Shown here: positions 4,590 through 10,903 of the stretch, piece by piece
Layout: each line of letters starts with the position of its first letter
How positions within the stretch are numbered: the first letter of the stretch is position 1
Assembly (NCBI GenBank): GCA_963833555.1
Contig: CAWHYB010000004.1
Coordinates: 131,844 to 195,843, forward strand
DNA from: an uncultured Actinomycetes bacterium
GTDB taxonomy: Bacteria; Actinomycetota; Thermoleophilia; UBA2241
Length of the DNA stretch: 64,000 nucleotides
Reading direction: 5' to 3'
Program-made: the position numbers and the translations under genes
The notes under the pieces: generated by a model
Seen by the model: the letters and a program-made list of their open reading frames with translations, nothing else
Told to the model about the DNA's origin: nothing
Databases searched by the model: none

Positions 4590-5713
4590 GCTGGGATCTC
4601 GTCTGGGCCATCGTGCGCGTCGTCGTCGCGATCGTCATCGCCTACGCGGTCGTGTTCGTCGCGGCGCTCGTGAACATCCTCTTCGAGCGCCGCATGCTGG
4701 CCTTCCTGCAGGACCGGCTCGGTCCCAACCGCACCGGCCCGCAGGGCATCCTGCAGAGCGTCGCCGACTCCTTCAAGATGATGGGCAAGGAAGACTTCGC
4801 GCCGGCGCGCGGCCGACAAGGCGATCTTCACGCTGGCGCCGATCATGGTCATGGTCGGCGCCGTCGCGGTGCAGCTCGTGATCCCCTACACCAAGGGCTG
4901 GACGGGCCAGGACCTCAACGTCGGCCTCATCTACATCGTCGCCATCACGAGCTTCACGGTGCTGGCGATCCTGCTCGGCGGCTGGGCCTCGCACAACAAG
5001 TACTCTCTGGTCGGCGCGCTGCGCTCGGCGGCCCAGATGGTCTCGTACGAGCTGCCCATGATCCTCGCGCTGCTCGTGGTGGCGATGACCGCCGGCTCGC
5101 TCAGCCTCAACGCACGTCGTCGCGGCGCAGTCGCACTACCAGTGGTTCGCCTTCACCATGCCGTTCACGTTCCTGCTCTTCTACATCGCCTCGATCGCCG
5201 AGCTGAACCGCGGCCCCTTCGACCTGCCCGAGTCCGAGTCCGAGCTCGTCGCCGGCTACGGCACCGAGTACTCCGGGCATGCGCTTCGGCATGTTCTTCC
5301 TCAACGAGTACGCCGGCATGACGATCATGTCGATGGTCACCGTCACGCTGTTCTTCGGCGGCTGGCAGGGTCCCTTCGCGGACGCCGTCGTCGATCCACG
5401 GCGTCGCCCTCGTGCCCATCGTCTGGTTCCTGGTCAAGACCTACGTGCTGGTCTTCGCGCTGGTGTGGATCCGCCTGTCGGTGCCGCGCCTGCAGGTCGA
5501 CCAGCTCATGGGCTTCGCCTGGAAGATCCTCATCCCGCTCGGGCTGGTCAACATCCTGGCGACCGCGGCCGTGCATGCTCTGGGCGCCGCACTGGAAGCT
5601 CGCCATGGCCGTCTTCAGCTGGATCTGCGCTGGTGCTGTTCGTCGGCCTGTTCGACACGGTGCTGCGCTGGCGGCTCGAGCGGCAGCGCGAGAGCGTGGC
5701 GGTGCTCGCCTGA
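4586..5713 (+). pseudogene. nuoH: NADH-quinone oxidoreductase subunit H, six +1 frameshifts
   Basis: ATGA overlap with nuo[109 protein letters not shown]. Confidence 0.92.
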
Positions 5714-5945
5714 TGCTCGGCATGCTCAAAGCCATGCGCACCACGCTCGCGCACCTGCCGCAGAGGAAGATCACCGTGCAGTACCCCGAGCAGCGCGAAG
5801 CAGCTGCCCGAGCGCAGCCGCGGCCTGTTCCGCGTCGTCATCGACCCGGCCACCGACGACCCGCGCTGCCGCTCGTGCACGCTGTGCGAGACCAACTGCC
5901 CGGTGCAGGTCATCCGCGTCAACTACGAGCTCCAAGTACGACGCT
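5713..5945 (+). pseudogene. nuoI: N-terminal half only of NADH-quinone oxidoreductase subunit I (TYKY), carrying the first 4Fe-4S motif; possibly fused to the downstream NuoE-like region
   Basis: TGATG overlap with nuoH. The protein reads [29 protein letters not shown], then after a +1 shift near 5790, [42 protein letters not shown]. No second CxxCxxCxxxCP motif follows in any frame before NuoE homology starts near 6000. Confidence 0.75.
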
Positions 5946-6481
5946 GCCGGCCGTCAACGAGGCGCGCATCGCAGCGCGCCCGCGTCGACGTCGCAGCCGA
6001 CGCCCGACCTGGCCCTGCTCGCGCCGGTCATCGACCACTACCGCGAGACCGGCACCGGCATGATGGCCGTGCTGCAGCACACGCAGGAGATCTACGGCTA
6101 TCTGCCGCGCCTGGCGCTTGCAGGAGATCGCCGTGCAGACCGGCATCTCGCTGTCGCAGCTCTACGGCGTGGCGAGCTTCTACAACCAGTTCCGCCTCGT
6201 CGCCGGTCGGGCAAGCTTCATCGTCACCGTCTGCCACGGCACCGCCTGCCACGTCGCCGGCGCGCCGCTGATCACCGACGCGTTCTCCGAGGAGCTCGGC
6301 ATCGAGGTCGGCAAGACCACCAAGGACCGCCTGTTCACGCTGCAGACCGTCAGCTGCGTCGGCGCCTGCGCGCTGGCGCCGGTGGTGCGCGTCGGCGACG
6401 ACGAGACGCACGGCCGCATGACGCCCGACAAGGCGCGCGAGCTCGTCAACGATCTCCGCGCCGGGCGAGGGCGACCGATGA
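5946..6481 (+). pseudogene. nuoE: NuoE/HoxE/HydC-type [2Fe-2S] subunit (24 kDa family); 5' boundary unclear, frameshifted
   Basis: [38 protein letters not shown] / QEIAVQTGISLSQLYGVASFYNQFRL...VCHGTACHVAG...TVSCVGACALAPVV (Cx4C...Cx3C). No ATG, GTG or TTG occurs in its frame between about 5945 and 6060. The 3' end is either an ATGA overlap at 6478-6481 or runs in frame into nuoF. Confidence 0.8.
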
Positions 6482-8390: not shown

Positions 8391-8395
8391 CGGAC

Positions 8396-10903
8396 ATGGC
8401 GACGATCGAAGACAGGATCGACAGGCACCCCCGCAGCGTGAAGCCGCCGCCCGCGGGACGGGCGCGCGCTCCGCAGATCACCCTGACGATCGACGACCAG
8501 CAGGTGATCTGCGACGCGGGCGAGACGATCCTCGAGGCGGCCCAGCGCGTCGGCATCCACATCCCGACGCTGTGCTACGAGCCGCGCCTGCCGGCCTCGC
8601 CGCCTGCCGCGTCTGCATGGTCGAGGTCGAGGGCGCGCGCAAGATGGTGCCGAGCTGCGCCACGCCGCGGCCGACGGCATGGTCGTGCACACCGACACCG
8701 AGCAAGGTGCGCGAGATGCGCCACCTCTACCTCGAGCTGCTGCTCTCCGACCACAACTCGTTCTGCACGCCGCCCTGCCGCGACGCCTGCCCGACGCACA
8801 TCAAGATCCCGCAGTTCCTCGACTACATCGCCCACGGCGACTACAAGAACGGCGTGCGCAAGCTGCGCGAGGACCTGCCGTTCCCGGCCATCCTCGGCCG
8901 CGTCTGCCCGCGGCCCTGCGAGGGCCCGTGCCGCCGCCAGCTGGTCGAGCACCCCATCACCATCTGCTGGCTGCACCGCTTCATGGCCGACCAGTGCACT
9001 CGACGAGGAGCAGACCGGCGAGCTGCTGCTGCCGGTCGAACCCAAGCCCGACACCGGCAAGCGCATCGCCATCGTCGGCGCCGGTCCGGCCGGCCTGGCC
9101 TGCGCCTTCTACGCCCGGCTCGAAGGGCACGCGGTCAAGATCTTCGAGGCCCTGCCGCACGCCGGCGGCATGCTGCGCTACGGCATCCCCAGCTACCGCC
9201 TGCCGCGCGACCTCATCGACAAGGAGATCAACGTGCTCTGGCGCATGGGCGTCGAGCTCCAGTGCGACACGCGCCTCGGCGTCGACTTCCAGCTCGAGGA
9301 CCTCACAGCGCAACTACGACGCCGTGTTCCTCGCTCTCGGCGCCTTCGGTTCCAACGAGATGGGCGTCGACAACGAGGACGCCGACGGCGTCGTCTCGGC
9401 CGTCGACTTCCTCGGCGAGCTCGAGCTCAACGGCGACGTGCACGTCGGCGACAAGGTCACCGTCATCGGCGGCGGCTTCACCGCCATGGACGCCTGCCGC
9501 ACCTCGGTGCGCAACGGCGCCAAAGAGGTCACCTGCCTCTACCGCCGCTCGCGCAAGGAGATGCCGGCCCACCTCACCGAGGTCGACGAGGCCGAGGAAG
9601 AGGGCGTGAAGCTCGAGCTGCTCGTCGCCCCGGTGCGCATCCTCGTCGACGACGACCACAAGGTCACCGGCATCGAGATGCAGCGCATGGAGCTCGGCGA
9701 GCCCGACGCCTCCGGCCGTCGCCGGCCGGTGCCGATCGAGGGCTCCGAGTTCGTCGTCGAGTGCGACCAGGTGATCGCCGCCATCGGCCAGTTCCCGATG
9801 CTCGACGGCACGAGCGAGGAGCAGGGCGTCAAGCGCACGAAGTGGAAGACGATCGACGTCGACGAGTTCACCTTCCAGACCGACGATCCGCGCGTGTTCG
9901 CCGGCGGCGACGTGGTGCTCGGCGCGCAGACCGTGATCCAGGCGGTCGCCCAGGGCAAGAAGGCGGCCTGGAGCATCGACGCCTTCTTGCGCGGCGACGA
10001 CATGCGCGAGGTCTCGCGCGAGCTCGCCGAGCTCCGCGCGACGCCGTTCTTCAAGGCGCCTGAACGCAGAGAGCGATCTCGACCCGGCGATCGCGCGCAT
10101 GGCCGAGATCCCGCCGATGTTCATCGACATGACGACCGACGTCATCGCAGCCCGCGGCCGCCGGCCGAGATGCCCAAGCTCTCGCCCGAGCAGCGCAGCA
10201 CCAACTTCGAGCAGATCGAGCAGGGCTTCTCCGAAGCCGAGGCGCAGCGCGGCGCCGAGCTCTGCCTCGACTGCTACTGCCCGGCGAACGGCAGCTGCGA
10301 CCTGCAGCGCTACGGCATCGAGTACGAGGTCTTCAAGAACCGGTTCCACGGCCAGGCGGCGCACGACTACCCGGCCGACTTCCGCCACGACTTCATCATG
10401 CGCGAGCCCAACCGCTGCATCAACTGCCTGCGCTGCGTGCGCGTCTGTCGCATGGAGGTCGGCGCGAGCTGCTACGACGCCATGGGCCGCGGCTGGGACA
10501 CGATCGTCTCGACGCCCGACAACCTGCCGCTGCAGATGGTCGGCTGCGTCTCGTGCGGCAAGTGCGCCGAGACCTGCCCGACCGGCTCGATCGAGACCAA
10601 TCCGCGCCTGCTCGCCAGCTACGACCTCGACGAGAGCCGCTGCATCTTCTGCGGCGAGTGCGTCGAGGTCTGCCCCTACGACGCGCTCGAGCAGACCGAC
10701 TTCTTCGAGCTCGCCGACTACAGCCGCACGCAGCTGGCCGGCGAGTCGCTGTTCGTGCGCGGGCCGAAGCCCGTCGACGCCCTGCGCGAGACCGTCCCCG
10801 ACCTCGTGCCGCACGTGCGCGACGCGGTCGCGGGCGACGGCTGGCAGTGGTCGCCGCTCAAGGGCGACGGGGCCGGCCTCGACGAGATCGAGGAGGAGTG
10901 TGA
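8396..10903 (+). pseudogene. Fusion protein: NuoG-type 2Fe-2S domain + GltD/NfnB-type FAD/NAD(P)H oxidoreductase + NuoG/HydA-type 4Fe-4S clusters + C-terminal half of NuoI; several frameshifts
   Basis: [187 protein letters not shown]...[58 protein letters not shown]. It ends at a TGATG overlap with nuoJ. Confidence 0.8.

Follow-up and report, generated by a model that had tools for sequence, protein, structure and literature searches.

We analyzed a 64,000-nucleotide stretch of DNA (hereafter, the window) from an uncultured soil Actinomycetes bacterium (Actinomycetota; Thermoleophilia; UBA2241), which comprises positions 131,844-195,843 of the forward strand of contig CAWHYB010000004.1 in assembly GCA_963833555.1 and carries an operon for complex I (nuo). 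In this operon, the gene for the iron-sulfur (FeS) subunit NuoI is split in two, and a flavoprotein cassette of three proteins, here called E, F, and X, is encoded in the gap, such that the N-terminal half of NuoI (In) is joined to E and the C-terminal half (Ic) is joined to X. The split-NuoI arrangement recurs in 68 independent loci with enough flanking sequence, counted, like the layout counts below, among the best 80 of 520 matches that encode a relative. This split-NuoI operon is a genuine, conserved variant of complex I. On balance, we consider it probable that the halves rebuild NuoI and that the complex acts as a dual-donor NAD(P)H:menaquinone oxidoreductase; the assembly of the halves and the catalytic role are what we infer from sequence and synteny.

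NuoI is divided between two fusion proteins

The initial annotation of the window had proposed the gene order A-B-C-D-H-I(N)-E-F-X-J-K-L-M-N. Using reference subunits from an intact relative (L004, a short-read metagenome-assembled genome, MAG) as tblastn queries, we recovered the order A-B-C-D-H-In-E-F-X-Ic-J-K-L-M-N, which agrees with that proposal (Table 1). Since nuoD directly adjoins nuoH, with no E, F, or G gene in between, the backbone is of the 11-gene type. The features of a quinone-reducing Q-module are present: NuoB carries the tandem-cysteine N2 motif GLACCAIEM as well as GCPPRPE, NuoD carries MGPQHPSTHG and lacks NiFe ligands, and all membrane subunits (H, A, and J-N) were detected. 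The canonical 14-subunit layout, with E, F, and G between D and H and a NuoG that bears a molybdopterin-like domain, is not what we found. Specifically, probe searches of the entire 64 kb and Pfam analysis of X detected no molybdopterin-type domain and no canonical nuoG, as had been claimed at the outset, and the window holds no further nuoI, nuoG, nuoE, or nuoF.

In begins at an ATG that overlaps the nuoH stop codon (TGATG, 5711-5715) and contains the segment YPEQRE..LPERSRG followed by a single CxxCxxCxxxCP cluster motif (~5867-5902). It ends just past the strand VIRVNYE; similarity to NuoI stops near 5945, and the NuoE domain follows. No second cluster motif occurs in the 5713 gene in any frame or after indel correction, so the earlier claim that this gene holds only the N-terminus and the first motif of NuoI stands. 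The second motif (~10638-10673) and the NuoI-type tail indeed lie, as proposed, at the end of gene X (8396-10903), where Ic begins at the strand SYDLDESR and finishes in an acidic extension; the last ~60 residues lead up to a TGATG overlap with nuoJ (10901-10905; nuoJ ATG at 10903). The split point corresponds to the tip of the hairpin between both cluster motifs.

Judged by profile searches, In and Ic are complementary pieces of NuoI. When the two are rejoined, they match positions 2-115 of the 121 in TIGR01971 (E = 1.6e-27, 95.5 bits), and residues 4-118 of the rejoined protein align with NDUFS8 residues 40-158, interrupted by a single small gap where the halves meet; bacterial NuoI chains also match. 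Nearly all top matches of each half belong to NuoI, NdhI, FpoI, and HycF-type families, whereas generic ferredoxin families score far more weakly (~1e-5 for Ic and ~1e-3 for In). The motif that ends X is therefore best assigned to NuoI (9e-13 versus ~1e-5) rather than to a generic ferredoxin, the outcome that would have undone the initial annotation. In addition, In contains the NuoI-specific N-terminal segment that precedes the first motif, a segment that generic ferredoxins lack.

In its N-terminal segment, its two motifs, its C-terminal helix region, and its position between nuoH and nuoJ, the divided protein resembles canonical NuoI/Nqo9/NDUFS8 (TYKY). This gene position is seen in the window and likewise in 37 loci. 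Unlike canonical NuoI, a single polypeptide of ~140-220 residues, its fold is distributed over two polypeptides, with ~1,640 residues of other subunits encoded between them; in clean relatives, the halves belong to a 253-residue In-E and an 824-residue X-Ic protein. The two CxxCxxCxxxCP motifs, which correspond to clusters N6a and N6b, consequently lie on different polypeptides. The In motif is conserved in 67 loci and the Ic motif is invariant in 71, and all eight cysteines (8/8), which persist through ~50% sequence divergence, and both prolines are kept across two phyla that share ~35-40% identity over these segments. The ratio of nonsynonymous to synonymous substitution rates is ~0.27 for In and ~0.31 for Ic, values that are probably inflated by the strong third-position G+C bias.

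Table 1. Features of the split-NuoI operon in the window (positions are those of the 64,000-nucleotide stretch)
Feature	Position	Strand	Basis
nuoA, nuoB, nuoC, nuoD, nuoH (Q-module and first membrane subunits)	1950..5713	+	tblastn with L004 subunits; translations
In, N-terminal half of NuoI	5713..5945	+	TIGR01971 positions 2-62/121, E 2e-12; three-frame reading, frameshift-aware alignment
Linker from In to NuoE-like domain, ~20-30 residues, same polypeptide	5946..6005	+	continuous 253-residue open reading frame in L004 and L032
NuoE/NfnC/StnA-like domain, thioredoxin-like [2Fe-2S]	6006..6481	+	PF01257 E 2e-46 on L004; frameshift-aware boundary
F, BfuB/NfnB/StnB-type NuoF	6478..8390	+	Pfam on L004 F; PDB matches; window motifs
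X, NfnA/StnC-like without Fdh-like domain	8396..10589	+	Pfam on L004 X; phmmer versus PDB
X, Fer2_4 [2Fe-2S]	~8474-8698	+	
X, Fer4_20	~8764-9005	+	
X, GltD-type FAD/NADPH domain with YRR	~9062-9954	+	
X, CLDCYCPANGSC	~10227-10290	+	
X, NuoG-type ferredoxin domain	~10392-10587	+	
Ic, C-terminal half of NuoI, fused to X	10590..10903	+	TIGR01971 positions 71-115/121, E 9e-13
nuoJ, nuoK, nuoL, nuoM, nuoN (membrane arm, antiporter-like subunits)	10903..16800	+	tblastn

The inserted cassette is of NfnABC/StnABC type

The initial annotation had described the insert as a NuoE/NuoF/NuoG-GltD module. Our results agree and refine this description: because the best solved relatives of E, F, and X are all NfnABC/StnABC proteins (Caldicellulosiruptor saccharolyticus 9BOV/9BP5, Sporomusa ovata 8OH5, and archaeal 9N5U), the cassette is, by sequence, an NfnABC/StnABC-type set of the Bfu family, and its F is equipped with the additional clusters that mark bifurcating enzymes. 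Schut et al. use such clusters in the B subunit as their criterion, and on that basis the cassette counts as "bifurcating", with the activity itself being a prediction.

In L004, Pfam finds one Fer4 half-motif and a 2Fe-2S_thioredx domain in In-E, and the E part is closest to NfnC (9n5u_C, 9bov_C) and StnA (8oh5_A), with E-values from 2e-48 to 4e-45. Its [2Fe-2S] motifs, CHGTAC and C(V/M)GAC, are present in the window and absent from the Chloroflexota relatives; as a NuoE-like protein with a [2Fe-2S] cluster, E corresponds to the Bfu C subunit. F of L004 contains PF01257 (residues 27-106), PF01512 (Complex1_51K), SLBB, PF10589 (NADH_4Fe-4S), and Fer4 (residues 567-620), that is, an N-terminal thioredoxin-like [2Fe-2S] domain, the flavin mononucleotide (FMN)/NADH site, an N3-type [4Fe-4S] cluster, and a C-terminal 2x[4Fe-4S] segment. 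The first and last of these, which lie beyond the FMN and N3 core, define the Bfu B subunit. Full-length matches to 7t2r_B, 9bov_B, 8oh5_B, and 9n5u_B reach ~800 bits, whereas Thermus Nqo1 matches only the core, at 405 bits. F has its extra clusters in common with NfnB/StnB.

For X, the Pfam order in L004 is Fer2_4, Fer4_20, Pyr_redox_2 (GltD type), Fer4_Nqo3, and Fer4, and phmmer alignments to 9bov_A (8e-190), 8oh5_C (2e-168), and 9n5u_A (5e-156) are collinear over residues 19-744. As in NfnA/StnC, a GltD/NfnL-type domain for flavin adenine dinucleotide (FAD) and NADPH interrupts a NuoG-like FeS domain, which is the mark of an NfnA-type A subunit. Probes for formate dehydrogenase (Fdh)/NuoG-like proteins match only at 8474-8766 and 10260-10670, the flanks of the GltD domain. 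Unlike NfnA/StnC, X has no Fdh/NuoG-like (molybdopterin-fold) domain with an A5 cluster at its C-terminus, where half of NuoI is found instead: neither PF00384 nor PF04879 was found in X, and its alignment to NfnA ends at about residue 698 of the 1,178 in that chain. The E-like subunit likewise differs from NfnC/StnA in that it begins with the other NuoI half. After frame correction, the window proteins keep the FMN/NADH, SCGKCVPCR (N3), FAD, NADPH, YRR, and A4-type motifs, both [2Fe-2S] motifs, and the C-terminal dicluster.

The cassette is not a free-standing set of three genes for a soluble enzyme, since it lies within nuoI or after nuoB in all 68 informative loci. In contrast to the soluble tetrameric Nfn/Stn enzymes, its product would be expected to be membrane bound and quinone linked.

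Some paralogues of X and F depart from this pattern. A full-length NfnA/StnC-like paralogue, 58% identical to X, occurs at 8756-12997 of L049 (JAAYBE010000094.1; also in L048 and L050), in the MAG that carries the split-NuoI operon L040. It has the molybdopterin domain and no NuoE/F neighbors, and its reading frame, interrupted by a TGA directly behind ...IDHCART, where formate dehydrogenase has its active-site selenocysteine, resumes downstream. Its sequence suggests that it is probably a selenocysteine-containing, GltD-bearing formate-dehydrogenase-like enzyme, and it may represent the ancestor type of X. In L046 (CAVXDR010000005.1, 7554-11014), F lacks the Bfu-type N- and C-terminal extensions, and X has a 2x[4Fe-4S] segment resembling the F C-terminus in place of part of the GltD domain. 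Lastly, P0304 (L084, 6-2123) and P0296, both on short contigs, comprise an X-like module (GltD plus NuoG-like FeS domains) and then an Ic-like motif SYRVDESRCIMCEKCVNVCP, fused to a thiamine pyrophosphate-binding, PorB-like domain of 2-oxoacid:ferredoxin oxidoreductase; other ferredoxin-dependent enzymes may thus also carry this NADPH input module as a fusion.

Recurrence of the arrangement and quality of the window sequence

The window has a G+C content of ~68-70%, and its own open reading frames (ORFs) are broken by about one indel per 250 bp. Over the nuo region, the coding phase, followed through third-position G+C, shifts every 150-400 bp; nuoA through nuoH are all frameshifted, and NuoD, NuoH, and other nuo subunits are each scattered across several frames. 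Frameshift-aware alignment of proteins from clean relatives required 19-21 frame corrections in the three genes of the cassette (5713-10903, 5.2 kb), all of them single-base indels. None of 21 frameshifts falls in a run of four or more bases (background, 6%), which rules out homopolymer-type long-read errors as their cause. The density of phase switches in 1-20 kb and 52-60 kb (~4 per kb) is roughly threefold that in 20-52 kb (~1.4 per kb). Because the corrected proteins are 79-84% identical to their relatives and contain no premature in-frame stop, we treat the indels as probable sequence errors rather than decay. ORF boundaries within the window are unreliable and were adopted from relatives; the stops of In-E (ATGA overlap, 6478-6481) and of X each involve one indel correction, while F ends at an in-frame TGA (8388-8390) and is followed by the ATG of X at 8396.

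Given this state of the sequence, the whole arrangement could in principle be a mis-assembly, a chimeric contig, or a pseudogenized nuo operon, and both the number of frameshifts in three genes and the density of phase switches in 1-20 kb speak for such an origin. We nevertheless regard it as extremely improbable, since the identical architecture is present with intact ORFs in 68 independent loci, including short-read MAGs and isolates, since the frameshifts also occur outside the operon, and since their pattern matches that of sequencing indels. A chimeric junction, in particular, is excluded by recurrence in short-read, frameshift-carrying (probably long-read), and isolate assemblies, where short-read MAGs were recognized from SPAdes/MEGAHIT-style contig names.

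An initial search with the C-terminus of X returned 77 proteins, mostly MAG fragments and several of them frameshifted; a scan of one genome per GTDB species gave 599 pattern matches, from which the 80 loci considered here were fetched. The order H-[In-E]-F-[X-Ic]-J was found in 37 loci from Thermoleophilia/Actinomycetota. Another 30 loci belong to Chloroflexota, of which 29 have exactly the order B-[In-E]-F-[X-Ic] and one, from Limnocylindria (L076), has B-D-[In-E]-F-[X-Ic]. X stands alone as a paralogue in three loci, and in 11 the contig ends before In would be reached. None of the 68 informative loci has an undivided nuoI and E-F-X at another place, a finding that would have spoken against the split layout.

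The loci closest to the window (L005, L037, L036, and L032) share ~84% DNA identity with it over ~14-15 kb. In the intact L004, the cassette encodes In-E of 253, F of 638, and X-Ic of 824 residues, with stop-on-start overlaps between In-E and F and between X-Ic and nuoJ, and with F and X two bases apart; the X-Ic/nuoJ overlap is also seen in L001 and in the window. In-E is likewise 253 residues long in the short-read MAG L032 and 246 residues in the isolate genomes L065 and L068, and at least 120 protein clusters (90% identity) consist of In-E proteins of ~250-253 residues. The suggestion that the N-terminal NuoI half and NuoE might form one polypeptide thus holds in clean assemblies and, for the window, rests on these relatives. 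The linker between In and E is much longer in Ktedonobacteria.

Most Chloroflexota loci are from Ktedonobacteria, including the complete genome of strain brp13 and Thermogemmatispora aurantia A1-2. Their cassette (L002 and L051-L082; e.g., L065, 5931-11119) is reduced and is led by a nuoB of the tandem-cysteine N2 type. Its In-E has a NuoE-like helical domain without [2Fe-2S], and its F is short, with degenerate FMN motifs. Overall, the FMN motifs, the E [2Fe-2S], and the extra F clusters are gone in Ktedonobacteria; N3, FAD, YRR, A4, In, and Ic remain. The opposite input is affected in L036 and L042, where the NADPH site is degenerate and most F motifs are kept (two are altered in L036). In L032 (5963-11215 of PLTW01000035.1, a bog MAG), the FMN/NADH motifs of F are degenerate (GLRSDGGAGS, CTADPGDPG, and CDEATAL) and the CPAGxC cysteines are lost; here, F and X share one open frame without a stop, a possible F-X fusion. 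This is the only real F-X continuity that we found. A single giant In-E-F-X-Ic polypeptide was rejected as a candidate, as the long frames upstream of X are mostly out-of-frame GC-rich reading.

A third, divergent lineage, ~50% identical over Ic, is represented by L083 (ERZ25039568 contig_67835, 679-5190), P0226, P0234, and P0263; the order in L083 is F, X-Ic, nuoJ, nuoK on a short contig.

As for the surroundings of the operon, a minus-strand TatC-like ORF (~388-855) lies upstream of nuoA, and tatC and tatA were called at the same upstream place in L001. Downstream of nuoN (17012-64000), visual inspection suggests a YmdB-like gene as well as an extended cluster for cell-envelope glycans with epimerases, glycosyltransferases, and an asparagine-synthase-like gene, along with radical-SAM-like genes at 58.6-63 kb. 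An adjacent ORF pair at 39610-41180, ABC-transporter-like by eye, is intact, with a third-position G+C of 0.98-0.99. Calling strands by codon composition failed to separate the strands in the window, and a tRNA scan and an Rfam scan of it gave no tRNA genes and no Rfam matches.

Proposed electron path, competing readings, and significance

The arrangement suggests how a complete input module could be coupled to complex I. An NfnABC/StnABC-type set lies inside nuoI of an 11-gene-type operon, with in-frame fusion at both ends, and in the reading that we favor, In and Ic would come together and restore NuoI's 2x[4Fe-4S] ferredoxin fold. In this fold, the two motifs share the ligation of each cluster, with three cysteines supplied by one of them and a single cysteine by its partner. 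A restored fold would therefore have both N6a and N6b ligated 3+1 across two polypeptides. The rebuilt domain would dock on NuoB, NuoD, and NuoH and covalently tether the input module, so that its physical anchoring to the membrane arm is predicted. NADPH would be oxidized at the GltD-type FAD of X and NADH at the FMN of F; both routes would converge on the NuoG-like clusters in X (A2 in the nomenclature of NfnA), from which electrons would leave through A2, A4, N6a, N6b, and N2 in NuoB to menaquinone and drive proton pumping.

The exit branch of this path has a counterpart in Caldicellulosiruptor saccharolyticus (Csac) NfnABC. There, electrons from NADPH follow FAD-A7-A6-A3-A2-A1-B1-FMN, and A2-A4-A5 forms a dead-end branch into a cofactor-less Fdh-like domain, which was termed a probable evolutionary remnant (PMC11829005). 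In X, the second NuoI strand begins eight residues past the A4-type domain, exactly where NfnA enters the Fdh-like domain. The rebuilt NuoI domain may thus take the place of the Fdh-like domain, with N6a substituting for A5, and the loss of the NuoG/Fdh-like domain, the usual anchor of the N-module, may be offset by two covalent tethers. Because a cleft next to the Fdh-like domain houses the NfnC N-terminal domain (PMC11829005), the E N-terminus and the end of the X A4 domain would, by analogy, plausibly be close to each other. The loss patterns in Ktedonobacteria, L036, L042, and L032, as read from their motifs, fit two partly redundant inputs.

Several observations weigh against this reading. 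The score of rejoined In and Ic, 95.5 bits, is below the TIGR01971 cutoff of 113.05, even though TIGR01971 is still the best-scoring family, and a single-sequence AlphaFold2 model of the rejoined protein has a predicted local distance difference test score (pLDDT) of only 32. The assembly of the two halves is predicted from sequence, and, with ~20 frameshifts in the window genes, their integrity in this organism is assumed from relatives. To our knowledge, all characterized members of the Bfu type to which F belongs bifurcate with ferredoxin, which favors a more complex reaction than dual input. Furthermore, the Chloroflexota cassette is not beside membrane-subunit genes, with no other nuo genes within 10 kb, and the search for a second nuoI was confined to the window and the loci.

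The last two points also suit a different explanation, namely that the product is a soluble Nfn/Stn-like transhydrogenase merely encoded in the nuo operon, in which the NuoI pieces are vestigial or serve as an internal ferredoxin domain and another NuoI is encoded elsewhere; the nearest solved relatives, NfnABC/StnABC, are indeed soluble. We find this very unlikely. In retains the NuoI-specific N-terminal segment (profile positions 2-50), a cassette flanked by nuoH and nuoJ is always at the canonical nuoI position and stop-on-start with nuoJ where this overlap was seen (L004, L001, and the window), and the Chloroflexota cassette is always led by a tandem-cysteine NuoB, the direct electron acceptor of NuoI. 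X has also lost the Fdh-like domain, whereas in soluble Nfn, four NfnA subunits mediate tetramer formation (PMC11829005).

The F subunit raises the question of bifurcation. Its N-terminal [2Fe-2S] and C-terminal 2x[4Fe-4S] are the discriminator of bifurcating NuoF homologues according to Schut et al., its best solved relatives are all bifurcating enzymes, and most Thermoleophilia, like the window, retain the Bfu motifs. A "Nuo-Bfu" has, moreover, already been predicted in Geobacter, Deferribacteres, Planctomycetes, and Nitrospirae, separately from a soluble Nfn-Bfu (Schut et al. 2022, PMC9304861). The enzyme could accordingly be a membrane-bound confurcating or bifurcating Nuo-Bfu with an Nfn-type A subunit, whose BfuBC core couples NAD(H) and ferredoxin obligatorily: either NADH and reduced ferredoxin would be oxidized together, which gives extra driving force for menaquinone reduction, or NADPH electrons would be split between menaquinone and ferredoxin or NAD+, with NADP(H) as the fourth substrate. 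We judge this rather unlikely. The Chloroflexota have neither any Bfu-specific cluster nor the E [2Fe-2S] and yet keep the split NuoI and the GltD domain; therefore, bifurcation is not required by the split architecture. Electron transfer from NAD(P)H to menaquinone is strongly exergonic as it is, and the cultured Ktedonobacteria that bear the cassette are aerobes with no known dependence on low-potential ferredoxin pools. A broader reading, which we also consider rather unlikely, is a four-substrate hybrid of a proton-pumping complex I and a bifurcating transhydrogenase (NADH, NADPH, ferredoxin, and menaquinone), with N6a and N6b across two polypeptides, that would have arisen from in-frame insertion of an entire nfnABC operon into the nuoI hairpin.

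A further alternative concerns direction. Menaquinol, for example from the oxidation of atmospheric H2 or CO, together with the proton-motive force could reduce NADP+ (and NAD+), so that the enzyme would mainly run in reverse as a proton-motive-force-driven NADPH generator, with NADPH (and NADH) serving biosynthesis or CO2 fixation. Of the input/output sites, the NADPH-specific GltD site (YRR) is the one that both phyla retain, reversibility is an established property of complex I as well as of Nfn, and Ktedonobacteria, including Thermogemmatispora, persist on atmospheric H2 and CO (PMC6776052). The sequence gives no direction, though, and genes for hydrogenase, CO dehydrogenase, or RuBisCO are not co-localized in the window or the examined loci; we hold predominantly reverse operation to be quite unlikely. 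It would be a physiological direction of the same machine and is compatible with the dual-donor oxidoreductase that we favor.

Among described systems, the predicted Nuo-Bfu is similar in that the NADH module of a proton-pumping complex I gives way to a Bfu-type B/C core whose genes occupy the middle of the nuo cluster. Compared by its description, it differs in having 14 genes (A-N); neither a split NuoI nor an A subunit that binds NADP(H) is mentioned (PMC9304861), and Actinobacteria, Thermoleophilia, and Ktedonobacteria are unmentioned in the main text and one supplement of that study (PMC9304861). The absence of E, F, and G between nuoD and nuoH is shared with 11-subunit complex I-like enzymes (nuoA-D and H-N; cyanobacterial NDH-1), but those have an intact NuoI and receive electrons from ferredoxin or unknown donors, whereas here a complete pyridine-nucleotide module would be covalently attached. 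In Mbx-like operons, too, the NuoI position is where an NAD(P)H flavoprotein of the GltD type connects with a membrane module resembling that of complex I (Degli Esposti 2015, PMC4758237). NuoI is substituted there (PMC4758237), while here it is retained in split form, and the module is a full Nfn-type set of three subunits on a quinone-reducing complex I with tandem-cysteine N2.

The initial annotation knew of no description of such a complex I, and our search of the full-text literature, which included complex I surveys and Bfu/Stn/Nfn papers and mostly left subscription journals outside, found no description of the split-NuoI layout. The Stn and Nfn structure papers do not link those enzymes to complex I, and neither Spero 2015 nor a 2025 hidden Markov model study, both of which surveyed the gene content of complex I, mentions a split NuoI; Spero 2015 lists Chloroflexi genomes with 13 of 14 subunits, only NuoG being missing (PMC4453560). 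Public annotation names In-E only as "NADH-quinone oxidoreductase subunit E" or "NAD(P)H-dependent oxidoreductase subunit E", with PF01257 alone as its precomputed Pfam domain, and names X-Ic fragments "formate dehydrogenase major subunit", "4Fe-4S binding protein", or, occasionally, "subunit I". Because of such labels, automated reconstructions likely score these soil lineages as lacking NuoI and NuoG.

We found this mode of attachment, in which a core FeS subunit is divided and both of its halves are joined to subunits of the incoming module, described nowhere, and it should be of high interest to bioenergetics. We know of no characterized complex I with an NADPH site of this kind. If our reading is correct, these bacteria would possess a complex I with a built-in NADPH dehydrogenase or, in reverse, an NADP+ reductase, and the A2-A4 cluster branch, called an evolutionary remnant in soluble NfnABC, would have a function. 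Cultured carriers exist in Thermogemmatispora aurantia and Ktedonobacteria strain brp13, in which this reading is testable.

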